A stretch of 64,000 bases of DNA from Candidatus Dojkabacteria bacterium (lineage in GTDB: Bacteria > Patescibacteriota > Dojkabacteria > GCA-002793355). Every line of letters begins with the position of its first letter. Position 1 is the first letter of the stretch. The notes beneath the pieces are model-generated. The model was given only the letters and a program-made list of their open reading frames with translations. It was not told where the DNA came from and ran no database searches. The stretch covers positions 622,491 to 686,490 of the forward strand of contig CP129477.1 in assembly GCA_030583825.1 (NCBI GenBank), written 5' to 3'. The position numbers and the translations under genes were made by a program. Shown here piece after piece: positions 1,160 to 58,500 of the stretch.

Positions 1160-4100
1160 ATGTCTTTACTGCTCAAAACAATACATACGCTATATGCCCT
1201 TTTAGTGGCATTCTTTGTAGCATTTGTAGGAGGATTTATCCTCCTTTTTCCGCAGGTTCATTCTCCTGCAAAAATAACTCAAACATGTGTACTTCCTGAA
1301 ACTATTCACGGTAATGTTGAAATTGTTTCAAGTTCAATTGAAACAGCAATTGATTGTCGTCGCCAAGATGTTATTGTCGCTGAAAATGGTAAGCTCACAT
1401 TTATTGGTGCTACAGGCGAGACAGCATCGCCGGAAGTCCGTGTAAGATCATTAACAGTTGCAAATGGTGGAAAAGTAGATGTCGTGGCTATTCAGAATGC
1501 AGTCACTCCAACAATTCTCTTTGCCGGAACAGTATCAATGCAGGATCAGACTGTTAGTAATTCTGCAAAAGTATCTCAGGAAGGCAATTTAGTTGCATTT
1601 AATGCTCAAGTTTTAAGCGTGAATACAAATGAAGAACAACCTTCAGATAGCTCATATATTCAGCTTTCTAATGCATACCAATCTCCAGAAGTTCTTGGAG
1701 AGTCTGTAAATCAGGTGGTAGAGAAGGTGTTCAATGGTTTTTCACTGGAAGAGTTTGTCGCCTCAGCATTGCAGTGCTCACAAGTTTCAGCGATTGAAAG
1801 AGAAAATAATGACAATTGCTATTCTAATAATAGCCAATTGATTGCATCTACAGACAATCCAACATCTTTGACTGTTGCTGCTATTAGCCAAGAAGCACAA
1901 ACATTCTCACGTGTGGCATCAAATAGAGATATTGCGGCGGATGTGCTTGGTGCAAGTGGAAAAATAGTGAATCTGGGCGGAGTTGTAAACCAAAGCGGAC
2001 AGGTAACTCTGAGGGCTGAGGTAACACCACAATTTTATTTTGAAGCTCCAAAGCATATTCAGTTGGAGTTTGAAGTTAAGACGGTGCAAGACGCATTTGA
2101 CGGAACGACCGGAATGTTTTTGTCCGAGCCGGTATTTACAAATGGAACAGACCCCGTCAGTGTTAGTACGACAATAGATTATCTTCCGCAAAATCAGTCG
2201 TTTAAGTGGAGAGTGCGTGTTGTGGAAGTTGCCACCGGTGATAGAGGAGAATGGGTATCATTTGGAGAGAATGGTGAAGAAGAAGCAGACTTTGTTGTTT
2301 CATCTGCAAGCGCACTTAGGCTCGAAGCAGAAAGATATTCATTAGGAACAGAAGATAAAATCACCATTACGGTTACAGCTCTTAATGAAAATGGCCAGCC
2401 TGACGTAGATTACGGAGGTGTTATTCGCTTTAGAAGCGATAGTACTTCTGCAGATTTACCAAAAACATATCGCTTCACCAAAGCAGACAAAGGAACAAAG
2501 GCATTTACAGCGAGTGTGAAGTTTTATGAGCCAGGAGTTCGTTATATTACTGCATTTGACGCTGTAAATAGTTCACTAACAAGTACAGCAGCATTTACTG
2601 TAACACAAAGAGAAACTGAATATTTTGTACTGACAGCAAATAACTATTCACTTTACCGTGGAGAAAGAGCAACTATGATGTGGTCAAGTCGCGGTATGAC
2701 ACAAATTTTGTTACCAAATGGTGAATCAAGCGACCTGGCTGCGGGAACATTCGAAGTAACTCCATCAGAGGATGAGTATGTTTCAGTAAGGGCGATGACT
2801 CCAGAAGGGGTGACTGTATATGCAGGTGCAAATATTACAGTGAATAATGCAGATGTAGATCCACTTACTCGTGAAGATATTGATCCTGCACTGGAAAGAC
2901 AGCGTCGTATAAATCGAATTGCTACACCTGAAGTACAAGGAGTAAATACGGTCGGCGGAATTGCAAGTGAGCTTTTCCCAGACTATCTCCCGGAAGTTTT
3001 TAATGAAAATACAGAAATTCAGACGATTGATGAACCAAAGGTTTGCCCAACAATTGAATATTTCTCATATGACAAGCCATTTATTAAGGGTGGCACAATA
3101 GTTCACTTCTCGTGGAAAGTGAAAGATGCAGAACAGGTTGTTATTGACGCAATTCCGGGAAATCTTTCGTTACAGGGGCATGCCGCAATGTCAGCAGATG
3201 AAACATCTACAATTACCTTAAAGGCGATTGCAGGAACTTGCCATAGGACAATGAGCCTTCCAATTACTGTTGTCAGCGTGTATCCATGGGAAGCAACAGG
3301 TGCCTGGATTATCGGCATTATTTCTCTTGAAACACTTGGTCTTGTATTAGTTCCACTCGCAGCGCCAGGAGTGAAGTTTAATCTCTTCTTTGGTCTTGCA
3401 TCCGTGGTTGATCGTCTTATGAAACGCCGAAAGTGGGGAGTTATTTTCGATACAAACACAAGAAAACCAATTGCAGGAGTAAAAGTTTCAGTCTATTCGC
3501 CTGATAAGAAAATTCTTTATGATTATGCAATGTCAGATAATTACGGAGGAATCTACCTAAAGAACGTTGCTCCGGGCAAATATCGAATCGAGCTTGAAAA
3601 AGTGGGGTACACTCTCGGTTTAGGTAAAGTATCTAAAAAGAGCGGAAAATCTCGCAAAGTTACAGGAGAAAAATACTTTAATGCTATTACGTCTTCGTTA
3701 GTAACAGTGACAAAAGATGGCCTTGCGCAGCAATACAACTTCCCAATGACGGAGAATAAAAAAGAAACAAAGAAATTGATGTATCATGTCATGTTGCTCT
3801 TAGAGGAGCTTGCAACTGTCTCGTTGCCACTTTTCACAATTATAGGAGGAGCATATGCGGTTGCAATCACGCTATTATATCCGGTTACCATGAATTTGAT
3901 GCTTTTGACGATGTATCTGCTTATTGTTCTGGCAAAAATGCTTAACTATTTATTCACTCGGTATACAGTTGGACAGGTAAGAACAGTCACGGGAATCCCA
4001 GTCGCAAACGTTCAAATTGCCTTGTATGATCGCAAAAGTGAGACACTTATTGCTCGCACAACAACAGATAAGTCTGGAAGGTACGTGTTTTTTGCCGCAA

Positions 4101-4255
4101 AGGGTGACTATAATATCGCAGTTGTGGACTCAAACTATAGATTAGTAAATAAAGGCCGTTCAAAACTCGGAATTACCGTTACAAATAAAGAGCAGACTGA
4201 AGATCAAATTTCTGTAGGCAAGAATATTACAGTGTATCCTGCGATGCCTTTGTAG
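1160..4255 (+). CDS. Giant membrane-anchored surface protein (paralog 1 of 3); Ig-like repeats, conserved C-terminal module, two carboxypeptidase-regulatory-like (CarbopepD_reg) domains separated by TM helices
   Basis: 1031-aa ORF with an N-terminal TM/signal segment (LYALLVAFFVAFVGGFILLF) and a long extracellular region. The C-terminus carries the motif KRRKWGVIFDTNTRKPIAGVKVSVYS...GKYRIELEKVGYT, then hydrophobic helices, then a second similar domain GQVRTVTGIPVANVQIALYD...SGRYVFF...GDYNIAVVD. Confidence 0.75.
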   Translation: MSLLLKTIHTLYALLVAFFVAFVGGFILLFPQVHSPAKITQTCVLPETIHGNVEIVSSSIETAIDCRRQDVIVAENGKLTFIGATGETASPEVRVRSLTVANGGKVDVVAIQNAVTPTILFAGTVSMQDQTVSNSAKVSQEGNLVAFNAQVLSVNTNEEQPSDSSYIQLSNAYQSPEVLGESVNQVVEKVFNGFSLEEFVASALQCSQVSAIERENNDNCYSNNSQLIASTDNPTSLTVAAISQEAQTFSRVASNRDIAADVLGASGKIVNLGGVVNQSGQVTLRAEVTPQFYFEAPKHIQLEFEVKTVQDAFDGTTGMFLSEPVFTNGTDPVSVSTTIDYLPQNQSFKWRVRVVEVATGDRGEWVSFGENGEEEADFVVSSASALRLEAERYSLGTEDKITITVTALNENGQPDVDYGGVIRFRSDSTSADLPKTYRFTKADKGTKAFTASVKFYEPGVRYITAFDAVNSSLTSTAAFTVTQRETEYFVLTANNYSLYRGERATMMWSSRGMTQILLPNGESSDLAAGTFEVTPSEDEYVSVRAMTPEGVTVYAGANITVNNADVDPLTREDIDPALERQRRINRIATPEVQGVNTVGGIASELFPDYLPEVFNENTEIQTIDEPKVCPTIEYFSYDKPFIKGGTIVHFSWKVKDAEQVVIDAIPGNLSLQGHAAMSADETSTITLKAIAGTCHRTMSLPITVVSVYPWEATGAWIIGIISLETLGLVLVPLAAPGVKFNLFFGLASVVDRLMKRRKWGVIFDTNTRKPIAGVKVSVYSPDKKILYDYAMSDNYGGIYLKNVAPGKYRIELEKVGYTLGLGKVSKKSGKSRKVTGEKYFNAITSSLVTVTKDGLAQQYNFPMTENKKETKKLMYHVMLLLEELATVSLPLFTIIGGAYAVAITLLYPVTMNLMLLTMYLLIVLAKMLNYLFTRYTVGQVRTVTGIPVANVQIALYDRKSETLIARTTTDKSGRYVFFAAKGDYNIAVVDSNYRLVNKGRSKLGITVTNKEQTEDQISVGKNITVYPAMPL

Positions 4256-4363
4256 GCTCTATTGAGGTTTCCTTTACACTTTTTCCTGTGTCGCTTTAGT
4301 GATATAATTCGTGTATTGCAATTTCATGATGTTTTGAGCTTTGGATGCTGAATTGCATGACAT

Positions 4364-4435
4364 GGATCGTTAGCTCAGTGGTAGAGCAGTCGGCTCTTAA
4401 CCGATCGGTCGGGGGTTCGAGTCCCTCACGATCCA
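4364..4435 (+). tRNA. tRNA-Lys (anticodon CTT); CCA not encoded
   Basis: Manual cloverleaf: acceptor GGATCGT/ACGATCC, D-arm GCTC-AGTGGTA-GAGC, anticodon stem GTCGG/CCGAT with loop CTCTTAA (anticodon CTT), T-arm GGGGG-TTCGAGT-CCCTC, discriminator A. It is followed by a terminator hairpin and a T-run. Confidence 0.85.
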
Positions 4436-4790
4436 AAGGTGAATTTTCTCTATGGAATAGAGAGGGTTCACCTTTTTTGTTTAATAAAGGGACTCGAAGC
4501 TGAATGAGAAATAGCAGCTGCTCCTGCTATTTCGAGTGAAGAAGGGGTCGAGGAGTATACCTTGGTATTTCAATATAATACGAGGTGACCGAGTCCCTCA
4601 CGATCCAAAGTGGAGTTTTTCCTACGAAGTAGGAGGAGCTCCACTTTTTGTATTGTATGAGAACCCCGTAATAATTGACGGTTCGACTTGAGTGAAACGA
4701 AAGAGCCGGAGGCGGGGATCCCTCACGATCCAAAGGTGAATTTTCTCTATGGAATAGAGAGGGTTCACCTTTTTTGTTTAAATCGGGGCT
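4419..4790 (+). repeat. Three direct copies of the tRNA-Lys 3' end (approx. CGAGTCCCTCACGATCCAAAG) each followed by a terminator-like hairpin; copies at about 4419-4483, 4591-4650 and 4714-4783
   Basis: Copies 1 and 3 are nearly identical for ~90 nt, including the post-hairpin TTTTTTGTTTAA..GGGaCTCGAA. Copy 2 keeps the 18-nt tRNA 3' end but has a different hairpin (GTGGAGTTTTTCCTACGAAGTAGGAGGAGCTCCAC) that preserves pairing. Confidence 0.8.
4438..4480 (+). terminator. Intrinsic terminator after tRNA-Lys
   Basis: Hairpin GGTGAATTTTCTCTATGGAATAGAGAGGGTTCACC followed by TTTTTTGTTT. Confidence 0.7.
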
Positions 4791-4881
4791 CGAAACTCGA
4801 GCAAGATCGCATTCTCATAAAAGTTGCATTTATACATAGTTCTGGTAGGCTAATTTATATAGATAACCGAAGAATTCTGCT

Positions 4882-7800
4882 ATGTTAAGGCATCGTATGG
4901 CTAAATTATTTCCACTGCTTGCTATTTCCGGATTTATCGTATTATCTACATTCTTTTTGTACCATCTCAGCCTTTCTCTTACTGAGCGAAACTTTTTTAC
5001 TCAAGGCGAAGTTCTAGGCCTGGGAACACAGAAATCACCAATTTTACAATCTCTTCGTTCTCTTGACCCAACATCAGAATTATTTAGAACACGTCTTGCG
5101 GCTGATGATTCTTATTACACACTGACAAAAAATGAGAATGATATGGACGTGGATATGACTGCAGGCGTTGATAATATCGCGCTTATTGGAGGGGAAGATA
5201 TATACGTACTTTCTCGGTACGAAGCAAATGGCTCGTATGATTGGTCTCTTGCTTTTTCAGATGCCGGTAGCGATCGCAGGATTCGTGATATGGAAATCGC
5301 TTCGGATGGTGCAATTGTTCTCGTCGGAGATTTTAGTACTACATTCGATTTTGATCCTACGGCAGGAACTGATTCAATTGCTCCCATTAGCTTACGGGAT
5401 GCGTTTTTTACGAAAATCAATTCTGATGGTACGTACGCATGGACAAAATCAATAGGATCATCTAATCCTTCATTAAGCGTCGAAAGTGAAAATATCGCAG
5501 TTGATTCCACTGGAGGAATTTACATTTCTGGAATGCTTGGTGGAACAGTAGATTTCGATCCCGGCCCAGGGGTTGCAGATAAAGATGGCCCAGGCAATTA
5601 TCTTTTAAAGTTAGATTTGGCAGGTGATTTTGAATGGGTAAGAGTGATAGAAATGGCAATTGATTCCATTGCTGTAAACAATGCAACTGGTGCGGTATAT
5701 GTTGATGGCTCATTTTGGGGAACAGATATTGAGTTCAATGACTCAGGGGTAGGCTCAGATACTCATACAGCAACAGGTGTTAATGTAGATGATGTTTTAG
5801 TTCAATATCGAACGAATGGTGACTATGGTTGGTCGAGAGTAATTGAATCAGACGGAGGATTGTCTAACTCTGCATATGAATTTGTTAACGTTTCTCCGTT
5901 TAATGATCAGGTATATTGGGGGAACTTCTTGTCTGACTCAAGTATTGATGCTGATGGAACAGTAGGTGTAGATACAATAAACAAAGTTAACACCGATCCC
6001 GCAGATAGCGATTTTGTTCTCATTAGATATGAAGATAATGGTGATTATGTAGGAGGAAGAACAATTACTGGAGACCAGTACAGTATTGACATTGCAGATA
6101 TGGTATTTGGCCCAACAGGCGAAATATATATTGCAGGCTCTATTTATCCATACGACACATCTCCTATTGATTTAGATTATACAGAAGGTGTTTTTATGTA
6201 TACTCCAGCCTCGGATTGGGGAGGAGGGTATATTATGAAAATGGAAGAGGATACTGATTTTGTATGGATATATCCGACATATGATCCGACCGAAAATTAC
6301 GGAACATATCTATATAACATTAACCGTACAAGTGCTGGACTTCTGATGGTTTCAGGTGTGTACGGTGGGTTAATTGATATGAACCCTTCACAGCATACGG
6401 TGACTAATCTTCCATTTATTGATGGCGGTGACTACGGTGGTTTTATTGCATTCTATACAGACGGCTTCATGACTTACATTGCAAACCTCGACCCTTCATT
6501 AAGAGTGGTTGATCAGGGAACCAGTTTTGATGCAGAAATCGCTTCGGAAATATTTATGTCTGGAACGAGGACGGTAAGGCTAAGAGAAGATTCTACGAAC
6601 CTGCTCCTTGCAGATGCTTTTACTCAAATGAATGAAATTCGCGATTGGGCGACTGTCCAAGGAGAAACTGATCTTGCACTAGAAAAAACATATGTGGGAT
6701 CGCTTCAGGGAAATGACGGAGTTTCAGGCAACATTGATATTTATGTACCTATAGACGATCTGAATGATAACTCTGTTGTTGTTTGCCCACTAGCAGTGTC
6801 CATTGTTGAAGTTGCCACAAACTGTCCCTCTGCTATTATTCTTGCTGAAAATGCACCGAGTGTTTCTAAAGTGAATATTGCAAGCCAGGATTACTGGAAA
6901 GTAACAGGATTAACTAATGGTGGTGTAATCTCTCATACGGTTGTTATCACGCCAACTCCAAGCTCCTCGCCAACGGTTTCGCCAAGTCCTACCGTGACCC
7001 CAACAAGTACGCCAACTTCTACGCCCACACCGACTCCAACCGCAACAGAAACTCCAACGCCTACCATTACGCCAACTTTGACTATAACACCAACAAATAC
7101 TCTTGCGATAACTCCGTCGCCAACCCAGTCATTTACTTCGGGCGACACAAATGTGTCGTGTCCTACAATTACAACCTTTTCTGCTAACAAAACTGTTATC
7201 ACTCCAGGTACAGCAGTCTCATTTGCATGGAGTGTTTCGAATACCGACCATGTGGATATTATTCCTTACATAAATAATGCGCCATTCTCCGGTAATAGAA
7301 TAGAAACAATTTCGCTTGATCAACAAATTACTCTTGTTGCAACAAAAGGGGATTGTGTCAGAGAAAAAACAATCACTATTATGACTCAACCAGTTGCGCC
7401 GGAAACGATTACCTCAGGATTAGTACTCGGTTTTGCTGCTGTAGAAATTGCAACAGTCGCTGTTTCTTCTGTTGTCGCACCGGTTGTAAGCTCAAGTCAC
7501 AACATGTTTTCATTTGGATTCGCAATGATAGACAGACTTCGCAGACGTTACCCATGGGGAGTTGTCTACGACTCAAAAACGAAAAAACCTCTGGGTAGAG
7601 CAATTATTAGAGCAACAAATACCCAAACAAAACAAGTTATTACCAGCGTGACCGATGCCCTCGGCGTATTCCGAATTTTCTTAAAGCAGGGAACGTACAC
7701 AATTTCGGTTACAAAAACTGACTATGAATTTCCATCGAAACTGATTACAACAACAGAAGATAAAGGATATATGAATGTGTACCACGGCGAGGAATTTACT

Positions 7801-8337
7801 GTTCACACAGACGGAGAGTTAGTAATGAAAAGTTTTCCGATGGATCCTGCAGGAGAGACAAAAGTCTCATCACTTTTGAACCTCTGGATCAGTATCAGCC
7901 CGTACTTGGAATATCTTAACTCGTTTGTGCTGTTTGTTGGTATTGGGTTAAGCTTATATACCGTAGTTGTAAACCCAACATTATCAAACTTCCTACTAAT
8001 CGCATTTTACTTGGGTCTTGCTATTACAAAGCTTCTTCTGTTGCAAGTTCCAACCGCGGGAACGGTGAAAGACAGCCAAGGCAATCCTGTCAGAGGAATG
8101 GAAATTGGACTATTCGATGGTGAATTTAAAAACCTCGTTGCAACAACGTTTACTGACGATAAAGGTCAGTTCTCTTTCTACGCCAAAAATGACGACTACA
8201 CCATAAAAGTACTCGATTCCAAATATGAAATGGTAACTGAGAATATCATGGAAGGTATCAGAATACCTAAAGAAGGCGGAAACAATGGCGGAAGAGTAAT
8301 TATGACCGACTTAAAAGTGCGACAAAAAGCCTCATAA
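4882..8337 (+). CDS. Giant surface protein (paralog 2 of 3); SBBP-type beta-propeller repeats, PT-rich linker, conserved C-terminal module, two CarbopepD_reg-like domains flanking a TM hairpin
   Basis: 1151 aa with an N-terminal TM/signal segment. Repeats of the form DFDPTAGTDS...DAFFTKINSDGTYAWTKSIGSS resemble SBBP beta-propeller repeats. A TPTPTSTPTPTPT linker is followed by SFTSGDTNVSCPTITTFSANKTVITPG..., then RRRYPWGVVYDSKTKKPLGRAIIRATN, TM helices, and GTVKDSQGNPVRGMEIGLFD...GQFSFYAKNDDYTIKV. Confidence 0.75.
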   Translation: MLRHRMAKLFPLLAISGFIVLSTFFLYHLSLSLTERNFFTQGEVLGLGTQKSPILQSLRSLDPTSELFRTRLAADDSYYTLTKNENDMDVDMTAGVDNIALIGGEDIYVLSRYEANGSYDWSLAFSDAGSDRRIRDMEIASDGAIVLVGDFSTTFDFDPTAGTDSIAPISLRDAFFTKINSDGTYAWTKSIGSSNPSLSVESENIAVDSTGGIYISGMLGGTVDFDPGPGVADKDGPGNYLLKLDLAGDFEWVRVIEMAIDSIAVNNATGAVYVDGSFWGTDIEFNDSGVGSDTHTATGVNVDDVLVQYRTNGDYGWSRVIESDGGLSNSAYEFVNVSPFNDQVYWGNFLSDSSIDADGTVGVDTINKVNTDPADSDFVLIRYEDNGDYVGGRTITGDQYSIDIADMVFGPTGEIYIAGSIYPYDTSPIDLDYTEGVFMYTPASDWGGGYIMKMEEDTDFVWIYPTYDPTENYGTYLYNINRTSAGLLMVSGVYGGLIDMNPSQHTVTNLPFIDGGDYGGFIAFYTDGFMTYIANLDPSLRVVDQGTSFDAEIASEIFMSGTRTVRLREDSTNLLLADAFTQMNEIRDWATVQGETDLALEKTYVGSLQGNDGVSGNIDIYVPIDDLNDNSVVVCPLAVSIVEVATNCPSAIILAENAPSVSKVNIASQDYWKVTGLTNGGVISHTVVITPTPSSSPTVSPSPTVTPTSTPTSTPTPTPTATETPTPTITPTLTITPTNTLAITPSPTQSFTSGDTNVSCPTITTFSANKTVITPGTAVSFAWSVSNTDHVDIIPYINNAPFSGNRIETISLDQQITLVATKGDCVREKTITIMTQPVAPETITSGLVLGFAAVEIATVAVSSVVAPVVSSSHNMFSFGFAMIDRLRRRYPWGVVYDSKTKKPLGRAIIRATNTQTKQVITSVTDALGVFRIFLKQGTYTISVTKTDYEFPSKLITTTEDKGYMNVYHGEEFTVHTDGELVMKSFPMDPAGETKVSSLLNLWISISPYLEYLNSFVLFVGIGLSLYTVVVNPTLSNFLLIAFYLGLAITKLLLLQVPTAGTVKDSQGNPVRGMEIGLFDGEFKNLVATTFTDDKGQFSFYAKNDDYTIKVLDSKYEMVTENIMEGIRIPKEGGNNGGRVIMTDLKVRQKAS

Positions 8338-8444
8338 TGCTTTTGAGGAGCTTGATCACAATGTGTTGAAGTTTCCCTGAAATTTCCAAAAGAGGGGAGT
8401 GATATTCCTGTCATAAAAAATGTAGTACACTGTCAGTAAACTAT

Positions 8445-10757
8445 ATGATAGTGAATCACATCTATACTACACACTTTAGAAATATCCTTTTTGGGCTAGT
8501 TACTCTTGCACTCTTTCTAGTCATTCCACTTGCGACAGTAAAACTATGGGAAGCAACGCTTGATTATTCAGGGTCTCGGGCAGAAGTGCTTAGTGCAGAA
8601 ACTGCGTCAGTAATGTATGGGTTTGGAGATAATGGTAATGGCTCAACCGGTTTAGGTCTTGATACTGGGGATACACTTATTCCTACCCATATTGGTACAG
8701 ACGACGATTGGGTAATGATTGATATAGGAACAACTCACACAATAGCACTAAAAGAAGATGGGACAATGTGGAGCTTTGGCCCCAATACAAACGGAAAAAC
8801 TGGCCAAGGAACAGATACCGGAAGCATATTGGTACCGACTCAGATCGGTTCAGATACAGATTGGATGGCAGTTTCTGCAGGAAGCAACCATTCATTAGCA
8901 TTAAAAGAAGACGGTACGCTCTGGAGTTTTGGAACGAATGGAAGTGGAGCAACAGGATTAGGGACAGGAGTTGGAACCACATTAGTACCAACGCAAGTAG
9001 GAAGTGCCGATGACTGGGCATTTATTTCTGCGGGGAATGGATACTCTCTCGTTATTAAAGAAAATGGTACGTTGTGGGCCTTTGGTGCAAATACGAATGG
9101 AAAAACCGGACTGGGAACAGATTCTGGAAATAATACTACTCCGACACAAGTTGGTTCTGATGCAGATTGGACAGTAGTTTCCGCAGGAGTAAACGATCAC
9201 TCATTAGCTCTCAAAAGTGATGGAACGCTATGGGCTTTTGGTGGTAACAGCAATGCAAAAACAGGACTTGGAACTGCGTCAGGAAATACATTATCGCCAA
9301 CGCAGGTGGGGTCAGACGAAGACTGGACAACAATAACAACTGCTGCAAATCACTCACTTGCGCTAAAGGACGACGGCACGTTATGGAGCTTTGGATCAAA
9401 TAATAGTGGAAAAACGGGACATGGCGTAACATCTGGCGATACTCTTGTGCCGACACAAGTCGGCTCCGATACAGATTGGGCCGCCATTGCCGGAGGAAAC
9501 GGTCACTCGCTCGCAGTAAAAGAAAATGGCACATTGTGGAGTTTTGGACTTAACTCAGACGGAAGAACAGGGCAGGGAACGACAATAGGAATGTTATCGG
9601 TTCCAACCCAAGTGGGAACTGGTGAAAACTGGTTAGCGGTTGCGGCAGGCATAGGGCATTCTCTTGCGCTAAAAGCTCCTCCTGTGGAATATATTGTTCG
9701 ATATACTGCCGGAGGAAACGGCACTATCAGCGGAAGTGAACTTCAATATGTACCTCATGGATTAAATAGTACATCAGTAACAGCGGTTCCTGACGAAGGA
9801 TATCACTTCCTCAATTGGTCAGACGATAGTACAGACAACCCACGAGCCGATACAAATATCACTGATGACATGGAGGTAACGGCAAATTTCGAAGAAGATG
9901 AAGAACCGACACCAACCCCTACTCCAACACCTACCGTAAGTCCGTCTCCCACAGCTTCTCCAAGCCCAACTGCGACGCCTACCCCCACAAGTACCCCAAC
10001 ACCTACAGCTACAGTAACTCCTACTCCAACCTCCACGGTAACAGTGACTATTACACCAACTATCATTGGAACAGCTACCCCGACGCCAGTGATTTCTCCA
10101 ACTCAGTCGTTTACATCTGGAGATACAAATGTATCATGTCCGACAATTGTGGTATTTTCTGCAAATAAAACAGTAATTACCGCCGGAAGTGAAGTAACAT
10201 TCACATGGAATATTACAGGAGCCGAACATGTAGACGTTATGCCATATGTAAGTAATGCGGCACTTTCGGGCAGTAAAACAGAAATATTGACGACAGATCA
10301 GCGAGTAACCCTAGTTGCAACAAATGGAGATTGCTCTCGCGAGAAGTCACTAACAATTATGATGACCCCTATTTCTCTTGAAACTATCACTGGAGGGTTT
10401 GTTGCGGCATTTATTGCGATTGAAGCAGCTGTATTTGGCGCATCAACACTTATGCCGGGAGCGAGTATTGCTGCACAATCCAATATTTTCGGCTGGATTT
10501 TGTTAATGTTGAAGAAAAGTAAAAAGAGCTCCTCCGACCTAGAAAATGAGAAAGATTCAGTTACTATTGCTTCACCATCAGGACTTTCAAAAGCTATTCC
10601 ATATGTCGAGTACCTTAGCGCGTTCCTTCTCTTTGTCGGAATGGGATTAAGTCTTTACACTGTATTTGCTAACCCAATTTTAGGCAATTTCATTCTTGTG
10701 GGAATATATACTGCGCTTTCGGTAGGAAAAATTTTCGCAATGAGAAGCTCGGGGTAG
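8445..10757 (+). CDS. Giant surface protein (paralog 3 of 3); RCC1 (regulator of chromosome condensation) repeats, one Listeria-Bacteroides-type repeat, PT linker, conserved C-terminal module and TM hairpin
   Basis: At least seven RCC1-like repeats (GTLWSFGxNxxGxTGLGT...PTQVGSDxDW...SAGxxHSLALKEDG) and one YIVRYTAGGNGTISGSE...GYHFLNWSDD repeat. The C-terminus QSFTSGDTNVSCPTIVVFSANKTVITAGSEVTFTW...NGDCSREKSLTIMMTP and the TM hairpin IPYVEYLSAFLLFVGMGLSLYTVFANP are homologous to paralog 2. Confidence 0.75.
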   Translation: MIVNHIYTTHFRNILFGLVTLALFLVIPLATVKLWEATLDYSGSRAEVLSAETASVMYGFGDNGNGSTGLGLDTGDTLIPTHIGTDDDWVMIDIGTTHTIALKEDGTMWSFGPNTNGKTGQGTDTGSILVPTQIGSDTDWMAVSAGSNHSLALKEDGTLWSFGTNGSGATGLGTGVGTTLVPTQVGSADDWAFISAGNGYSLVIKENGTLWAFGANTNGKTGLGTDSGNNTTPTQVGSDADWTVVSAGVNDHSLALKSDGTLWAFGGNSNAKTGLGTASGNTLSPTQVGSDEDWTTITTAANHSLALKDDGTLWSFGSNNSGKTGHGVTSGDTLVPTQVGSDTDWAAIAGGNGHSLAVKENGTLWSFGLNSDGRTGQGTTIGMLSVPTQVGTGENWLAVAAGIGHSLALKAPPVEYIVRYTAGGNGTISGSELQYVPHGLNSTSVTAVPDEGYHFLNWSDDSTDNPRADTNITDDMEVTANFEEDEEPTPTPTPTPTVSPSPTASPSPTATPTPTSTPTPTATVTPTPTSTVTVTITPTIIGTATPTPVISPTQSFTSGDTNVSCPTIVVFSANKTVITAGSEVTFTWNITGAEHVDVMPYVSNAALSGSKTEILTTDQRVTLVATNGDCSREKSLTIMMTPISLETITGGFVAAFIAIEAAVFGASTLMPGASIAAQSNIFGWILLMLKKSKKSSSDLENEKDSVTIASPSGLSKAIPYVEYLSAFLLFVGMGLSLYTVFANPILGNFILVGIYTALSVGKIFAMRSSG

Positions 10758-11136
10758 CCTTGTTTTTCTAGCTTTTTATATGACTTTATTTCTTTATCTT
10801 TTCGACGTCATCTACTGTAATCCATGCTGCCATGCTCCGGCCTTGCAACTCAATAGCAAATCGTTGCTATTTTCTAACCTCCTTCACAAAAACATAACAT
10901 CGGTTATCTTTTTGTTCGGTTTCGTCAACTTATTAAATTTTCGCTGATGGGGTTTCCTCACTACGGTTCCGCCTTACGCATCAAATTACTTACTCAAAGA
11001 GTAAGGCTCACCAAATCCTGTCTTAGAAACGTAAAACGGTGCGATTTTCTGCACATTGGTCAGAAATAGTAACGAAACATATCTTCGACCTTGTACCTCT
11101 AAAAAGAAGGCATTTTGAGCCTCAGAAGGTACTCCT

Positions 11137-13399: not shown

Positions 13400-15052
13400 T
13401 TATCTGATTATTTTGAAGTATAAGTTGGAATCGTCTCCTCGGTAAATAAAAGTCGAGTCTTCCAAGTAGAAAGATGGGTTTGCCACGCCGCTTTGCAATT
13501 GATAAAGGTTACTACCGATGTAGTCAATTGCCCACATATTGCGATCACTTGTGAAAAGCAGGTAGTGAGAATTAAAAATCCATTTTATTGATTCGATTGG
13601 AACTTCGTTATTTGTAATAAGCTCGCGCTTTCCAAGCTCAATATAATGCTCTGCGGCACGCTTGTTATACGTAAATGTGTACAGATCTTTCTTTGACTCG
13701 CTTGTATAGGAAACTAGAAATCTTTCTGTAACAAACAGAACATCATCAACAAAGTTATCGCTGATTTTTAGCATAGAAATGCCTTCTCCCTGCGAAATAA
13801 TTGGCGTTTCTCCAAGCTTTTGAGTTGCATTCGTAATTTCATACTCTCCAACTCGGTTGTCGTACATATTTCCTACTAAATAAGAACCATCTATTCCGGC
13901 CAAGACGATAATTGTTTTGTCAGACAAATTTACAGCTGAGACTTCTTTTGGAGCTGTTGGCAGAGAAACATATTTGATGTCAGACTCAATTTCGTTTCCA
14001 TTGAAAGAGATTTGCTCAACAGAGTAGTGGGTTCCTTCTGGTAATGGGGAAGGTGTTGGAAGGTTCTGATCAAGTGCATTCTTTACGATGATTACGCCGT
14101 CGTCTGTCATTGCCCAGATGAATGTGTCAAATCGTGATAACTTATCAAACAAAATAATTCGTGCTCCGGTTTTAATATTGTACGAAATAACCTGGCTTTT
14201 AGACTCGATTAACAAATAATCTGAATTTTTGGCCCATTTGAGAATGCTGTCATCTTCGTCAATGTAAATATCGAGCTGAACGTTGCTAAATGGAATAATC
14301 TTTTCAACTTTTGTTGTAGAAAATGTCACAATTGAGGCTGATTTCTGACCTCTTGCATTCGCAATAGTGACAAGAATAGATTTTCCGGTAGGGGAGAGTG
14401 TAAAGTCATCAATGCTCCATCCTTGTGGAACCTCAATGAATGCACGCTCTCTTGTTGCAGGCTTTGGAGGTTCAAAGAAACTTCGCTGCACAATATATTT
14501 TGTAATGCTATATAACTGTTGCGCCGGGCTTTGCGCTGTTGGTACTGGAGTTACGGTAGTACCGGGGGTTTGTGTCGTGATCGCAGTTGCATCTGATGAC
14601 GAAGGAGACAAAATATAAACGCCTGATTCGTTCGAAAATACTTTATCTATTGCGCCAATTGAAGTAACCGATTCTGCGCCTGTTTGCTTAATCAAAGGAG
14701 CAATAATGATTGTTGCAAGCCCATGCCTTACGTCAACTGTTCTTTTGTACGAGTAATAACCGTCTTTGGACAGGTTAATTGCGTATGTTCCAGTTGTGAG
14801 ATTTGGAATTGCGCGATTTGTCGTTCCAATATATTCATTATTTATTGTGATTGCTGCGTCAGAAGGGTTCGTTTCGAGGTTTAAAACTCCTGTTTTTATA
14901 AGCTGTTTTTGAGAAATGTCTATTGAGTAGCCATTAACAATGATGAGAATGACGATAGTCGTACCGATAAGAAATAGACCTGAAAAGATGGGAAGAGCCA
15001 CAGTTATCACCTTTTTTGCCAACTTTTTTATTGCGTCTTTGGGAAATTTCAT
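13400..15052 (-). CDS. Membrane-anchored PEGA-domain protein with a beta-propeller-like C-terminal region
   Basis: 550 aa. N-terminal TM (ALPIFSGLFLIGTTIVILIIV), then a PEGA-like stretch (NLETNPSDAAITINNEYIGTTNRAIPNLTTGTYAINLSKDGYYSYKRTVDVRHG), then repetitive beta-rich sequence. Confidence 0.6.
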   Translation of the reverse strand: MKFPKDAIKKLAKKVITVALPIFSGLFLIGTTIVILIIVNGYSIDISQKQLIKTGVLNLETNPSDAAITINNEYIGTTNRAIPNLTTGTYAINLSKDGYYSYKRTVDVRHGLATIIIAPLIKQTGAESVTSIGAIDKVFSNESGVYILSPSSSDATAITTQTPGTTVTPVPTAQSPAQQLYSITKYIVQRSFFEPPKPATRERAFIEVPQGWSIDDFTLSPTGKSILVTIANARGQKSASIVTFSTTKVEKIIPFSNVQLDIYIDEDDSILKWAKNSDYLLIESKSQVISYNIKTGARIILFDKLSRFDTFIWAMTDDGVIIVKNALDQNLPTPSPLPEGTHYSVEQISFNGNEIESDIKYVSLPTAPKEVSAVNLSDKTIIVLAGIDGSYLVGNMYDNRVGEYEITNATQKLGETPIISQGEGISMLKISDNFVDDVLFVTERFLVSYTSESKKDLYTFTYNKRAAEHYIELGKRELITNNEVPIESIKWIFNSHYLLFTSDRNMWAIDYIGSNLYQLQSGVANPSFYLEDSTFIYRGDDSNLYFKIIR

Positions 15053-15099
15053 AGCTCCTGTATTGTAACATGTTTTGCTAAGGGGAGGTATAATAGAAA

Positions 15100-16113
15100 G
15101 TGATCTCGTTTAAACAAAAAAGATTAGGCATAGATTTGGGGACAGCTAACTCTATTGTCTTTATTCAGGGGGCAGGCGTTGTCTTTGAAGAGCCTACAAT
15201 TGTAGCAATTGATGTTATTGACCTGTCTATCGTCTCAATTGGCAAGGAAGCAAAGCAAATGCTGGGAAAAACCCCAGAAAATATTATTATTAAGCGTCCA
15301 TTAAAGAGTGGCGTTATTGCAAGTGCCCGTATCACCGAAGAATTATTGAGATTCTTTATTAACAAAGCCGTTGGCAGAATTAGGTTCTTTAAACCGGAAG
15401 TTATGATTAGTGCGCCTGTTGGTATTACTTCTGTTGAAAAGCGTGCGATTGTAAAAGCCGCGTTACAGGCTGGTGCGAGCAAAGTATATTTGATCCCCGA
15501 ACCGCTAGCTGCGGCGATTGGTGCAAAATTGCCAATTCATTCATCTGCCGGAAATATGATTGTTAATATTGGCGGTGGAACGACAGAAATTGCGGTTATT
15601 TCATTAAATGGCATTGTTATTTCAAACTCAATTCGTGTTGCAGGAGATGCATTCAACGATGCAATAATTTCCTACGCAAGGAAAGAAAGAAATTTGATAA
15701 TTGGTGAGCAGATGTCGGAGAAAATTAAGATGACAATTGGCTCTGCGATGCAAATGGAGGAGCCTTTAGTGATGGAAGTGAGTGGAAGAGACTTAGGATC
15801 GGGGTTACCTCGTATCGATGAATTTAATTCAAATGAAATAGCCATCGCGTTAAAAGGCCCGATCAGTGAAATTTTAATGTCAATTAAGCGATTATTAGAG
15901 AAGACTCCTCCGGAACTTTCTGCCGATATTATTGATCGTGGCATTGTCATGAGCGGAGGAAGCTCAATGCTTCGCAATTTGGACAAACTCTTTACAAAGG
16001 CGATGGGAGTTCCGGCATTTCTTGCAGATGATCCTATCCGCTGCGTTGCAAAAGGAACAGGGATTGCTCTGGAATTTTTGCCAGTGTTGAAAAAATCTCT
16101 GACTACCTACTAA
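15100..16113 (+). CDS. mreB: Rod-shape-determining protein MreB (GTG start)
   Basis: LGIDLGTANSIVF... actin-fold phosphate-1 motif, IPEPLAAAIGA, GGGTTEIAVIS and GIVMSGGSSML; 337 aa. RBS AAGGGGAGG upstream of the GTG. Confidence 0.9.
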   Translation: MISFKQKRLGIDLGTANSIVFIQGAGVVFEEPTIVAIDVIDLSIVSIGKEAKQMLGKTPENIIIKRPLKSGVIASARITEELLRFFINKAVGRIRFFKPEVMISAPVGITSVEKRAIVKAALQAGASKVYLIPEPLAAAIGAKLPIHSSAGNMIVNIGGGTTEIAVISLNGIVISNSIRVAGDAFNDAIISYARKERNLIIGEQMSEKIKMTIGSAMQMEEPLVMEVSGRDLGSGLPRIDEFNSNEIAIALKGPISEILMSIKRLLEKTPPELSADIIDRGIVMSGGSSMLRNLDKLFTKAMGVPAFLADDPIRCVAKGTGIALEFLPVLKKSLTTY

Positions 16114-16295
16114 GGCGTCGCTCAGGTTCGTCAAAAGGAGGCATGTTTAGAGGAGATTAAATGCAGAGCGAAGGTGAGGCGAAATCCCAAAGGTTTTTAG
16201 GTATCATGCGGAGTGAGTAATGAGTGAAAGGCACGCAGGTTTCGCTAACAAATGGGTTATTTAGCGTTTAGAACCGAGTACTTCCTTTCACGAAT

Positions 16296-16321
16296 TATGA
16301 GCGACGCGGTATAATTCCAAC
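16296..16321 (+). promoter_or_regulatory. Putative promoter of mscL (GCGGTATAATTCCAAC directly abutting the ATG, probably leaderless)
   Basis: TATAAT at 16310-16315, six nt before the ATG at 16322. The same GGTATAAT(TC) form recurs at the small-paralog array, rplJ and rpsA. Confidence 0.45.
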
Positions 16322-16759
16322 ATGAAAGAAGAATCAACAAAACAAAAAAGGGGGCTTTCTGAAGCAATTGCGCAGAGGACGGCTCAAGGAACAAAGGCAG
16401 TATTTACACCAGTTAACAAGTTCTTTCTCTTTTTGCAAAATAAATCCATCATTCCGCTGGCAATTGGTGTTATTATTGCAGATACGGTTAAACAAATAGT
16501 GAACGCTCTTGTTGATGGCATTATTCGCCCGTTTCTTGGGTTGTTTTCTCCTGCGTCAAATGACTTTGCACCGTTTAATATTGAGATTAATGGTGTGCTT
16601 TTCAAATTTGGAGATTTGATCAGTGTCATATTGCAGACGTTTATTATATTTGTGATACTGTATGTAGTCCTTGTGTGGTTATTCAAAAACGAAGAGCTTC
16701 TCGGATTAGCACCAAAAGAGCCGAAAGAATCAGCAGGAACGAAAAAGAAGAAAGGTTAA
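16322..16759 (+). CDS. mscL: Large-conductance mechanosensitive channel MscL
   Basis: PLAIGVIIADTVKQIVNALVDGIIRPFLGLF aligns with MscL TM1 ([30 protein letters not shown]); a second TM helix and a charged C-terminal tail follow; 145 aa. Confidence 0.8.
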   Translation: MKEESTKQKRGLSEAIAQRTAQGTKAVFTPVNKFFLFLQNKSIIPLAIGVIIADTVKQIVNALVDGIIRPFLGLFSPASNDFAPFNIEINGVLFKFGDLISVILQTFIIFVILYVVLVWLFKNEELLGLAPKEPKESAGTKKKKG

Positions 16760-16774
16760 ATTAAGTTTCACATT

Positions 16775-17551
16775 ATGAAACAAAAACTGCCAATTTCGGT
16801 GGTCATTCCCACATATAACGAAGAGAAAATGCTTCCTCGTTTGTTAAAGTCACTTGAGTCACAAGAATTTTTACCTGAAGAAATTATTGTCGCAGATTCT
16901 CCTCGTACGACAGATAAAACAAAAGAAATTGCAAAAGCTCACAAAGTAAAACTTGTAGAGGGTGGGTTAGTTGGAGTTGGAAGAAATAATGGGGCGGCAG
17001 TTGCCACAAGTGAAATTATCATGTTTTTAGACGCAGATGCAGTATTGCCACATGAATATTTTCTTGGTGAGGTATATGTCACCTTTAAAAAGCTAAATCT
17101 GGATATTGCCTCTACATTGTTGCTGCTTGACCCAACCGAGCAGAGAGATTTTCTTAATTCTCTTGCGCCACGAGCAGCCTTTCGAACATGGAATTCTCTA
17201 AAGAAACTTCATTCCATGACAAATAGAGTATTTGCAGATTCAGGAACCGGTATTATTGTAAAAAGAGAATTGTTTAAAAAGATTGGTGGATTCCGCGAAG
17301 ATGATATGATCGGTGAAGATGCAGAATTCACTATGCGTGCCTCAAAGATGGGCTTGAAATATAAAGTCCTTCCATTAAGTATTATTTCTTCAGGGCGACG
17401 TTATGAGACTCCTCAAAAAGCGACAAAAGCAATTATGGCATCACTCTTAACGGCAGGTGTTATTGGGCTGGGATTGTACAATAGTGAGTCTATCGTCAAA
17501 TTTGTAAGAAAGTTATACGGTGATTTAGGCGGTACTGCGGATAAAAAGTAA
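16775..17551 (+). CDS. Family 2 glycosyltransferase
   Basis: ISVVIPTYNEEKMLPRLLKSLESQ, then DAD (FLDADAVLP) and an ED-containing region typical of GT-A/GT2 enzymes. Confidence 0.75.
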   Translation: MKQKLPISVVIPTYNEEKMLPRLLKSLESQEFLPEEIIVADSPRTTDKTKEIAKAHKVKLVEGGLVGVGRNNGAAVATSEIIMFLDADAVLPHEYFLGEVYVTFKKLNLDIASTLLLLDPTEQRDFLNSLAPRAAFRTWNSLKKLHSMTNRVFADSGTGIIVKRELFKKIGGFREDDMIGEDAEFTMRASKMGLKYKVLPLSIISSGRRYETPQKATKAIMASLLTAGVIGLGLYNSESIVKFVRKLYGDLGGTADKK

Positions 17552-55502: not shown

Positions 55503-58500
55503 ATGAATCAGGGAAATGCCCCGCTGATCGCTGATCGAGCAAAATCAGTCTTCAGCTTTCTCATGAAACTATTGCTCATCGTTGTGATTATCTTTTTAAT
55601 TCTATGGTTTACAGGCCAGGGATCTGGACGTGAACAGCAGACTACGGGAGATAATGGCTCAGGCGATGGACAATCATTTACCTCAGGAGAAGTTAACAAC
55701 AATAACAACCAAGGATTAATTCCGGGTTTGAACGTTATTCGTGAAATTATCGCTCCTGATTTGCAATTCGCAAACCAAAACCAACTTTTCTGTTCAACAA
55801 ACAATATTACCAATACAACAATTGGTGGGCCAAATAACTACTTTAACGATGCGTATATTACAAATGTAAATGCAGATTCGCTCAATATTGATCCATACAC
55901 AATTAACAGTAATGGAATCACCAATACCAACGGTGGAGATATTAGACTTAATAACAATACAGTTATTTCAGGTGGATTATCAGTAACAAGTGGAAATATA
56001 AGTATCACGGGCAATCTTGTGAATTTTCCTGTTAACCCAGCCCATTTTGCAATTAGCACAGGTGTTCTTAACCTTGCAGATCCATACGCAACAGGTGCTG
56101 CATACGATTATCGTTTCTTCCCGCTAAATGGAACTTTAGACGATATTTCAAACGTTAATGCCCCTTCGCCAACAAGCGGTCAGGCATTGGTATGGAATGG
56201 AAGCGCATGGGTAGCACAAAATGTTGCTGCAGCAATCACAGGCTCAAACGGTATTACAGTATCGGGTGGAACAGACGTTCGACTTGGTGGAGCATTAAAT
56301 ACACCAACAACTGTTACTCAAGCTGGAAATACAATGACATTCAGCGGTGGAGCATTTGTCGTATCATCAGGCTCAAATGCAATCACCTTTAACACAGGTG
56401 TTGGACATCAGGTTAACCTTAATGGTTACTTCTCAGTTCGGAATAATTCTGGTGCAGATTCTATTGTTATTAATGGTGTTGAGTATTTCTTTCCTAATGC
56501 TGACGGAGCTTCCGGAGACTCTCTTATTACAGACGGCTCAGGAAACTTAGCATGGGGCCCTGCAAGTGCAGACGCAACAAACGGTTTACATGTTGATACC
56601 GGAGAAGTCAGACTCGGAGGATCACTTATCGAAAACACATATATTGATCAAGATGGATACGGCTTAGAGCTTTCAAATGGTTACTTCAGAGTTGATGCAG
56701 CATACGACAACCAGAATATTGACCTCTTTGGCTATGAAACTCTTGCAAGAGGAGAAAACTACCTTCGCTTGTACAGTAATAACGTACTTGAAATGACATC
56801 TGTAGGCTCAATGTATGTTGATGCTTTCAACCTTGAAATGACCACGGATGATTATTTAAATATTCGTTCTGATAACGCTTCGATAAATATCGAGGCGCCA
56901 AACGGAAACGTAGATGTGTATTCATGGGATTCAATCAACCTTGAAGCAGGGTATTACATCAACTCATACTCTGAGTACACTGACCTTTATACAGTTTACG
57001 ATTTTAATGTTACTGCCGGGTCTGGAAATCTTTACCTCCGCTCAAACAACTATGACGTAGAAATTAATGCGTTTAATGGTGGCTTTTATGGAAATTCTCA
57101 GTATATGGGGCTGTATGCAGATACAGGCTATATGATTAACTCAAATAACGGTTCCGGTCAGATTCAAGGATTCTGGGGCGTTGAGATGTATTCCGACAAT
57201 GGAGAAGTGAATATTGAAAACTATGTTCAGATCGAAGATTATTACATCACCATTTCGGGTGTTACGTACTACTGGCCATTCAGCGATGGATCATCAGGAC
57301 AACAGCTTACAACTGACGGTGCTGGTGGCTTATCATGGGAAAATGCCGGAGGCGGTGGTGGCGGCGGAGGCGGTGTCGGCGGAGCTGACAACGGTCTTCA
57401 TATGGATGGCGACCTTGTATATCTTGGAGGTTACCTTGTTGAGCACACAGATGTAAACCTCGACTTTGACTATCGTCTGAACTTTGTAAACGGAAATGTT
57501 GGTTTCGGAAACGATCTTCCAGTCGATCCAGATGAGCGTGACAGAATTACTGTCGCAGAAGGTGGTATCAATGTTATTAACCCAACAGAATTCCGACATC
57601 TTGGAGACTGGGGTAATGGCGGTGACTTCCAGGGGATCGAATATAAAGACAAATACGTTTATATTCGTGCACCAAACTATCGAGAAATCTTTATCGTTGA
57701 CGTGAGCAACAAAACAAATCCACAGCATATTGCAACGTGGACATTGCCTGATTGGGAAGATAACTATGAGCCTATGGGTTTGAAAGTTCGCGGAGACTAC
57801 ATGTACGTTTTGGCAATTAACTGGACAGATGAAGACTTACTTTACATTGTTGATATCAGAAGTCCAAGTAATCCAGCACTTATGACAACTCTGACATTAA
57901 ACACTTTCTCGGATGCTGGCCCAGGAATGAAGTTTGGAGAAATGGAAATTTCAGGAGATAGAATTTATGTTCCTTCGTATGTAAGTTCTGGATCACAAAT
58001 TGACGTATGGAACATTGTAAATCCAAGTCAGCCAAGATTTTGTACAACAATCGGTGTAAATAATCGAGTAGATATTGCAGCAATTAAAGTCCTTGGAGAA
58101 AAAGTATATTGGTCAACAAGTGATTGGGGAGATGGTGAAGTTGGTATTGCACAAGTAAGTTCATGTGGTGTTGGTGCATCAAGCTATACAAGCGGCCCAG
58201 GTAACAGAATGTATCGAGGTATTGATGTTACTGGACGATTCCTCTATGCCACTCGTGAAGATGGAAACTTAGATGTGTTCGAAGTTGATGACTTGAATAA
58301 CATTAACTATTACTCATCAGTATTTATTGGAGATTTACCTCGTCAGATTAAAATTGTCGGACGATATGCATACATTTCAACGACTGACGGCGGAACAATG
58401 AAAATTGTCGATATTCGTGATCCTGCAAACCCATCATGGATAGATAATGTCAATATTGATGATAACTGGACAGATTGGGTTATTGATTTTGAAATTGTTG

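Follow-up and report, generated by a model that had tools for sequence, protein, structure and literature searches.

Three neighbouring Candidatus Dojkabacteria genes with different heads and a shared, predicted polytopic membrane-anchor module

This report concerns three consecutive genes on the plus strand of a 64-kb window (the whole stretch of DNA analysed, from contig CP129477.1, to which all positions refer), named P1, P2 and P3 in their order. We consider it likely that they encode paralogous membrane-anchored surface proteins, in which a polytopic anchor of a Patescibacteria type carries variable heads that probably bind a host or substrates. The C-terminal module that contains this anchor is not special to the locus but represents a widespread, unnamed membrane-anchor family of Patescibacteria. 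Judging from protein identity, the source organism is a member of Candidatus Dojkabacteria (WS6; Patescibacteria, or candidate phyla radiation, CPR) with a reduced genome, as the initial annotation had supposed; the MreB protein encoded in the window (15100-16113) is 100% identical to a protein of a Candidatus Dojkabacteria metagenome-assembled genome, encoded on a contig of 1,090,595 bp, and its next-best matches are from Dojkabacteria/WS6. Patescibacteria are regarded as living in attachment to other microorganisms, and their host binding beyond type IV pili is little understood. The module offers a sequence handle with which candidate host- or substrate-binding proteins can be listed in CPR genomes and head repertoires compared between strains.

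A shared C-terminal module in P1, P2 and P3

The three open reading frames (ORFs) were confirmed at the coordinates and lengths first assigned to them. P1 (1160-4255; 1031 amino acids, aa) consists of an N-terminal hydrophobic anchor, a head of ~585 aa without a Pfam match and a complete C-terminal module; P2 (4882-8337; 1151 aa) carries an N-terminal anchor, an SBBP-like propeller head, a Pro/Thr (PT) linker and a complete module; and P3 (8445-10757; 770 aa) combines an N-terminal anchor, an RCC1 propeller, an InlB B-repeat, a PT linker, a Cys domain, a hydrophobic region, a short linker and a transmembrane (TM) hairpin, with no CarboxypepD_reg domains. A tblastn search of the whole window revealed only these three copies of the module and no fourth.

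The proposal that the three proteins share a C-terminal module under unrelated heads survived formal alignment statistics. In pairwise BLASTP comparisons, P2 and P3 are 52% identical over 139 aa (E 3e-43), and a further match of 53% over 49 aa (E 9e-15) covers the TM hairpin, that is, the last two hydrophobic helices. The match of P1 to P2 begins at the Cys domain and extends almost to the C-terminus (31% identity, 381 aa, E 7e-36), and that of P1 to P3 covers 118 aa at 31% (E 3e-10). The hydrophobic TM region of P1, previously left unaligned with the other two, is therefore alignable after all, since the P1-P2 match runs through the TM regions to the C-terminus. The module had been described as a linker, a Cys domain and a TM anchor; these parts stand, but the module is larger, with two CarboxypepD_reg domains in P1 and P2. 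Its order is an Ig-like Cys domain, a hydrophobic region of ~40 aa with an RKKR cluster, CarboxypepD_reg domain 1, a two-helix hairpin and CarboxypepD_reg domain 2, which ends the protein in P1 and P2. PF13620 (CarboxypepD_reg) exceeds the Pfam gathering cut-off of 32.3 bits in P1 (50.0) and P2 (66.3), with two stretches in each, and the same Pfam scan gave no PF13620 match in P3. The Pro/Thr linker, which had been named for P2 and P3 only, is present in these two (76% Pro, Thr and Ser in each) and absent from P1.

In P1, an N-terminal hydrophobic segment found by hydropathy scan (1187-1252) is a putative signal anchor or long signal peptide. The Ig-like Cys domain (3023-3298; aa 622-713, with Cys629 and Cys694) matches the Cys-domain hidden Markov model (HMM) at E 5e-42 and is followed by the first hydrophobic region, which leads into an MKRRKW basic cluster (3293-3397; P1-P2 alignment and hydropathy). 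CarboxypepD_reg-like domain 1 (3416-3754) is recognised by the Pfam families CarbopepD_reg_2 and SpaA at aa 760-835 and aligns with P2; the two-helix TM hairpin (3788-3958) is placed by the P1-P2 alignment and hydropathy, and CarboxypepD_reg domain 2 (3965-4252) by PF13620 at aa 938-1009.

The corresponding parts of P2 begin with the Pro/Thr/Ser linker (6937-7134) and the Ig-like Cys domain (7138-7413; aa 753-844, with Cys760 and Cys825), which AlphaFold2 (AF2) models as a beta sandwich. This domain matches no Pfam family and has a generic Ig/PKD-like fold in structural comparison. The first hydrophobic region (7405-7533; a TM segment and a short helix according to hydropathy and AF2) ends in DRLRRRYPWG. 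It is followed by CarboxypepD_reg domain 1 (7537-7881; PF13620 at aa 893-952 and an AF2 beta domain), the TM hairpin (7912-8052; P2-P3 BLASTP, hydropathy and AF2) and CarboxypepD_reg domain 2 (8053-8334), which contains the second PF13620 stretch together with DUF1416, Big_1 and SpaA matches at aa ~1059-1115.

P3 differs in its anchor. Behind the Pro/Thr/Ser linker (9903-10112) and the Ig-like Cys domain (10116-10391; Cys565 and Cys630, identified by BLASTP against P2 and by HMM match), a reduced anchor (10377-10739) is composed of the hydrophobic region, a 29-aa Lys-rich linker in place of CarboxypepD_reg domain 1 and the TM hairpin, directly after which the ORF stops. Only the hydrophobic parts of P3 match profile A1, an alignment of the anchor part. 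A frameshifted CarboxypepD_reg remnant behind P3 was ruled out, as tblastn found none downstream of P3 in any frame. By these sequence comparisons, P3 is a shortened copy in which both CarboxypepD_reg domains have been lost and the membrane-spanning parts retained. The organisation of P3 implies that the CarboxypepD_reg domains are dispensable for membrane insertion, and they therefore probably add another function, such as localisation, oligomerisation or coupling.

P2 and P3 had been judged old duplicates from a DNA identity of ~70%. We measured 68% in the Cys domain, 63% in the Cys domain and TM region together and 59% in the hairpin, with not one 12-mer in common, and an assembly artefact or recent duplication was thereby ruled out. 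Their differences are distributed over the three codon positions as 29:22:66, which indicates that P2 and P3 are old duplicates that are both under purifying selection. The Cys residues of P1-P3, even in number in each protein, are all confined to the predicted outer part ahead of the first hydrophobic region, a placement that fits putative disulfide bonds within the exported part of the proteins.

The shared block does not map to a well-characterised anchoring domain, and only the generic CarboxypepD_reg fold was recognised in it. Scans of P1-P3 against Pfam and NCBIfam found no PEP-CTERM-type, SLH or other sorting or anchoring family at E<=0.01, and a regular-expression search found no LPXTG motif in any of the three.

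The heads received unequal support. The P3 head had been read as RCC1 repeats with a Listeria-Bacteroides repeat, and both components exceed their Pfam cut-offs: the RCC1-like seven-repeat propeller (8607-9674) matches PF25390 at E 2e-70 (238 bits, cut-off 150), with PF00415 in 7 stretches, and the divergent InlB B-repeat (Flg_new_2; 9690-9899) matches PF18998 at E 3.4e-14 (53 bits, cut-off 23.6), with PF09479 at 18.6 bits falling below its cut-off of 27. For the SBBP propeller proposed as the head of P2, the signals are sub-threshold: PF06739 reaches 14.4 bits against a cut-off of 20.5, and NCBIfam NF047494 (LipL53) reaches 55.9 bits against a cut-off of 400 (E 2.8e-15, aa 91-278). One related family member matches SBBP at E 3e-11, and an exact-protein look-up of P2 returned no match. 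The Ig-like repeats suggested for the P1 head found no support in Pfam, the sole signal being a weak match resembling the Cys domain at aa 491-545. The start of this head (window 1265-1500, aa 36-110; C.LP..I..IE...IDC..QD..I...GKL) resembles the N-termini of giant family members of 4.3-4.6 kaa (thousand aa), P0054 and P0064; from this resemblance, P1 may be a short relative of these giants.

A widespread module family in Patescibacteria

We searched profile A1 against 1.84 billion representative proteins, which yielded 29,068 matching protein clusters at E<=1e-3, 8,481 at E<=1e-10 and 2,998 at E<=1e-30. The 168 sequences examined, comprising the 150 best representative matches, earlier search matches and P1-P3, include 113 with the complete module (111 database proteins, P1 and P2). 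The tail after the module is <=30 aa long in 104 of these 113, and the head ranges from a few aa, in fragments, to 4,268 aa. P1 (aa 697-1029) and P2 (aa 828-1150) match the profile end to end, leaving tails of 2 aa and 1 aa, a match that is partly circular because both were used to build A1; the BLASTP alignments of P1 with P2 and of P2 with database matches are independent of it. A k-mer-limited homolog search with the same profile returned 3 proteins.

The heads of family members include fn3, Laminin_G_3, NHL, SBBP and other propellers, Big_1, PEGA, GLUG, cohesin and DUF4215, which are typical extracellular binding or stalk types, and also DUF2341. The family is very large, with members of up to 4.6 kaa and diverse binding heads on one conserved, uncharacterised C-terminal module. 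Several paralogs may lie on one contig, as illustrated by a 163-kb contig with at least three module genes. All named members are from Patescibacteria (Dojkabacteria/WS6 and Nomurabacteria), and existing annotations call them 'hypothetical protein' or 'carboxypeptidase regulatory-like domain-containing protein', or name them after the head domain. We found no published description of the module in the literature searched and no specific family name in the libraries searched, and the search for a solved structure gave NOMO2 as the sole sequence match (E 0.043).

Two members have unusual N-termini. P0016 (519 aa, from an ENA metagenome) combines the complete module at its C-terminus with an N-terminal methylation motif like that of type IV pilins (PF07963, E 1.3e-5), and a pilin-like head on a polytopic anchor is an odd combination. 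In P0071 (1954 aa), TM segments, a long head and the module come after an initial receiver domain of the response-regulator type (PF00072, E 2.4e-8), which hints that some family members are linked to signalling.

The Cys domain directly precedes the anchor in 30 proteins, including P1-P3 and giants of 3.1-4.6 kaa, and occurs in tandem copies in one of the 30. Its HMM, in which the query proteins were themselves included, matches P1-P3 at E 5e-42 to 4e-44 and 27 other proteins at E<=2e-7. In an alignment of 26 copies (A5), the second Cys (Cys825 in P2) is present in 26/26 and the first in 22/26. The second Cys is thus kept even in the four sequences without the first, and it may have a role beyond an intradomain disulfide. 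In addition, most family members have a short conserved motif, YPWE or PWE ('APET' in P2), directly before the first hydrophobic region (window 7390-7413 and 3280-3300), which may be an interface or processing motif.

Predicted membrane topology and competing explanations

An AF2 model of P2 aa 746-1151, built on a 17-sequence alignment (mean predicted local distance difference test score, pLDDT, 78.7), contains a helical hairpin, two beta domains and the beta sandwich of the Cys domain, which was assigned six strand elements (pLDDT ~95). When modelled on its own, this Ig-like domain has a pLDDT of 87. In Foldseek, the module model matched SdrD best (E 2.2e-6), with the TIE protein of B. anthracis, pilins and carboxypeptidase D (1qmu, 5aq0) also among the best matches. 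We then considered the charges flanking the hydrophobic segments as the mean number of Lys and Arg residues (K+R) per sequence in the 113 complete-module proteins. The stretches just behind the first hydrophobic region and ahead of the hairpin average 4.3 and 4.4, respectively, and the one behind the hairpin ~1.9, compared with 0.2 for the hairpin loop and 0.1 for the interior of the first hydrophobic region, upstream of which the sequence is net acidic. Under the positive-inside rule, this distribution implies that the first region would cross the membrane once; hydropathy and the charge statistics together predict that both CarboxypepD_reg (transthyretin-like) domains are cytoplasmic.

These data suggest a model whereby the N-terminal hydrophobic segment would direct Sec export of a variable binding head, which would be kept at a distance from the membrane by a spacer, either charged or rich in Pro/Thr, and by an Ig-like domain close to the membrane that probably contains a disulfide bond. 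The hydrophobic region and the conserved RKKR cluster would then stop transfer across the membrane, and the succession of CarboxypepD_reg domain, two-helix hairpin and second CarboxypepD_reg domain would act as a polytopic anchor that fixes the protein in the cytoplasmic membrane, with both beta-sandwich domains placed on the cytoplasmic side by the positive-inside rule. The family probably diversifies by duplication, head replacement and gene conversion, and P3 would be a lineage-specific derivative in which the frame of a P2-like paralog carries an RCC1 and InlB-repeat head on only the membrane-spanning parts of the anchor.

Among known systems, the nearest kind is the modular Gram-positive surface adhesin, from which the anchor differs in being internal and polytopic and in having two transthyretin-like domains. 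The general plan resembles that of Gram-positive LPXTG MSCRAMMs such as SdrD, with an export signal, a variable head, beta-sandwich stalk domains, a wall-spanning linker of low complexity and a hydrophobic segment that leads into a basic cluster; SdrD is also the best structural match, and Pfam SdrD_B gives weak matches. Unlike LPXTG proteins, however, P1-P3 lack that motif, and P1 and P2 have their hydrophobic segment and basic cluster within the chain, ahead of two further domains and a TM hairpin; the predicted anchoring is polytopic membrane insertion rather than covalent linkage to the wall. To our knowledge, fibrillar adhesins are usually considered to be anchored by LPXTG, lipobox, SLH or autotransporter barrels. 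In contrast to these anchors, the module is a predicted polytopic TM element with two CarboxypepD_reg domains and without an anchor-family match in the Pfam and NCBIfam scans. Its combination of adhesive heads, repeated stalk domains and an anchor, with members that differ in the head, is otherwise like that of fibrillar adhesins, or modular stalk-and-head adhesins (Monzon et al. 2021, PMC8286594). The CarboxypepD_reg domains themselves, two each in P1 and P2, belong to PF13620, with the transthyretin- or prealbumin-like fold seen in carboxypeptidase D; here, the two copies are interspersed with TM helices in the C-terminal part of putative surface proteins and are predicted to be cytoplasmic, and P3 lacks them. 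The PF13620 name is uninformative on the architecture of the module. The CarboxypepD_reg regions also weakly match the NikL-type auxiliary subunit of energy-coupling factor (ECF) transporters (NF058648; E 8.6e-5 and 6.6e-4), NikL being anchored in the membrane and containing a transthyretin-like domain; the scores of 20-23 bits against a cut-off of 100 and the lack of a transporter gene context point to a shared fold only.

Several points weigh against the proposed membrane-anchored surface proteins or narrow them. The modular, exchangeable surface display suggested by the initial annotation holds for its modularity, with the module on very different heads in ~110 proteins and evidence of exchange (see below), whereas the display itself is something that we infer from domain types, Cys pairing and topology rules, and surface exposure and binding have this status for every family member. 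The head assignment of P2 is sub-threshold and the head of P1 has none, and the N-terminal segments, with 20-22 hydrophobic residues in the hydropathy analysis, could be cleaved signal peptides instead of anchors. Because many of the strong matches lack the TM architecture (55 of the 168 examined sequences are multi-repeat CarboxypepD_reg proteins of this kind), the true family is smaller than the raw count of ~3,000, and its taxonomic range is based on very few named proteins. With a predicted TM-score (pTM) of 0.35, the AF2 model leaves the relative domain arrangement undefined, and the first hydrophobic region, ~40 aa in length, was modelled at low confidence (pLDDT <50). If this region crossed the membrane twice, both CarboxypepD_reg domains would lie outside, the usual place of the fold.

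The last point leads to the opposite topology, which we regard as rather unlikely, in which the first hydrophobic region is itself a two-helix hairpin and the CarboxypepD_reg domains stand outside as wall-, S-layer- or glycan-binding pedestals. CarboxypepD_reg, SdrD-B and SpaA-like folds are typically extracytoplasmic, as befits the structural matches to SdrD, TIE, pilins and carboxypeptidase D, and many members have two hydrophobic sub-segments in the first region, modelled by AF2 as helices H95-119 and H126-142. However, this arrangement would put the conserved basic cluster (mean 4.3 K+R; 80-99% basic per column) outside the membrane and leave both cytoplasmic loops nearly uncharged (0.1-0.2 K+R), contrary to the positive-inside rule; the second sub-segment in P2 comprises only ~9 hydrophobic residues, and P3 lacks both domains yet keeps all hydrophobic segments. 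Cytoplasmic relatives of the fold may also exist, given that the second domain of P2 matches DUF1416 (E 5e-7), whose members are presumably small proteins without a signal peptide. The three-part layout of conserved P-W-E or P-E-T motif ('YPWE' or 'APETITSG'), hydrophobic region and RKKR cluster also recalls a sorting or processing signal, at which the head would be cleaved and attached to the wall or released in a sortase- or exosortase-like manner, and sortases are often encoded in CPR genomes. We consider this very improbable: LPXTG is missing from P1-P3, and the NCBIfam scan, in a library that holds models of C-terminal sorting domains, assigned them to no C-terminal sorting family. Furthermore, the element is internal in P1 and P2, where ~270 conserved residues come after it and form the best-conserved region of the family, and we know of no sorting signal followed by such a stretch.

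It is also improbable that P3 is a pseudogene left over from the decay of a duplicated P2-like gene, in a locus without functional modularity. The loss of both CarboxypepD_reg domains and the lack of a P3 ortholog in the syntenic relative and in the metagenome scan would agree with decay, but the 770-aa ORF is intact and its RCC1 match strong (E 2e-70), the missing segments coincide exactly with domains so that every hydrophobic segment stays in register, the differences from P2 are concentrated at third codon positions (29:22:66), and a terminator-like site follows the stop codon. Returning to the membrane-anchored surface proteins that we favour, a more ambitious and, in our view, unlikely extension is that the module is a Patescibacteria-specific device for transmembrane coupling, in which variable outer heads would be wired through a three-pass segment to two cytoplasmic transthyretin-like domains and would relay host or substrate contact inward, or couple it mechanically, in a receptor- or integrin-like manner, with recombination among paralogs re-assorting the heads and thereby changing binding specificity. 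If the CarboxypepD_reg domains are truly cytoplasmic, these would be unusual surface proteins with conserved intracellular beta-sandwich domains, which would suggest signalling or cytoskeletal coupling.

Probable head replacement, evidence of recombination and the surrounding locus

A comparison with the same locus in related genomes, the check originally proposed for the idea of varying heads on a kept anchor, showed that the anchor frame is maintained, that the P3 head differs and that P3 is absent from a syntenic relative. This relative, contig L007 (JGI 3300037311), has roughly 70% DNA identity to the window and the order YbaB, RecR, P1 ortholog, tRNA-Lys(CTT), a P2-like gene of 1183 aa, a GNAT-family gene, PRK, PEGA and MreB, and it is collinear with the window apart from the missing P3. 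The P1 ortholog is 67% identical and occupies the same position in L006, L007 and L008. P2 is ~51% identical over its full length to a 1133-aa gene of L006 and to P0026 (1152 aa, 51%), a second P2-like paralog at another locus (L005) that adjoins PfkB. Over 33 aa, P3 and P0026 have 64% identity in their N-terminal anchors, and the two proteins have the PT linker, the Cys domain and the TM frame in common, with RCC1 and InlB in P3 instead of the SBBP-like head. A metagenome scan with P3 recovered RCC1 heads only, at <=41% identity, none with the module or the Cys domain, and a scan of genome contigs with RecR gave only two distant loci, neither with the module. Since the frame of P3 is that of a P2-like paralog, its head is different and heads of the RCC1 type occur elsewhere without the module, P3 probably arose by lineage-specific head replacement accompanied by loss of the CarboxypepD_reg domains.

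Recombination between paralogs is suggested by the two P2-like paralogs of the relatives, which share a 578-bp tract at the head-linker junction (L005 11591-12168, gene 1591-2168; L007 15118-15689, gene 1582-2153) with 95% DNA identity, compared with <=68% in the rest. Such a tract indicates gene conversion, as far as can be judged from a signature of this kind. Contig L006, from another sample (13585-16986), switches between the paralogs exactly inside the tract; it may be a genuine product of recombination or else a chimera created during assembly.

The transcription signals at the locus include a promoter-like site upstream of P1 (1100-1129) and a terminator-like hairpin (10750-10762) that overlaps the P3 stop codon. 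Between P1 and P2 lies a tRNA-Lys(CTT) gene (4363-4436, plus strand; ARAGORN and Rfam), a conserved neighbour that is not part of the proteins and whose position is kept in L006, L007 and L008. The 3' end of this tRNA and its terminator hairpin are present in three copies on the plus strand (4422-4781; 4422-4484, 4594-4656 and 4719-4781) with a 19-bp stem, which is preserved by compensatory changes in the middle copy, 68% identical. L007 (13142-13420) has two copies of the repeat with a conserved spacer, and the repeats may be what is left of an integration (att) site or may form a structured RNA element.

Two other genes of the window encode proteins with related features. A 1516-aa LVIVD-repeat protein (55503-60053, plus strand; PF08309, E 3e-13) is a large putative surface protein without the C-terminal module, and a 550-aa protein (13400-15052, minus strand) contains a PEGA domain (E 4e-12) in addition to a TM segment at its N-terminus. 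The gene for the PEGA protein adjoins MreB in the relatives L001 and L007 as well.

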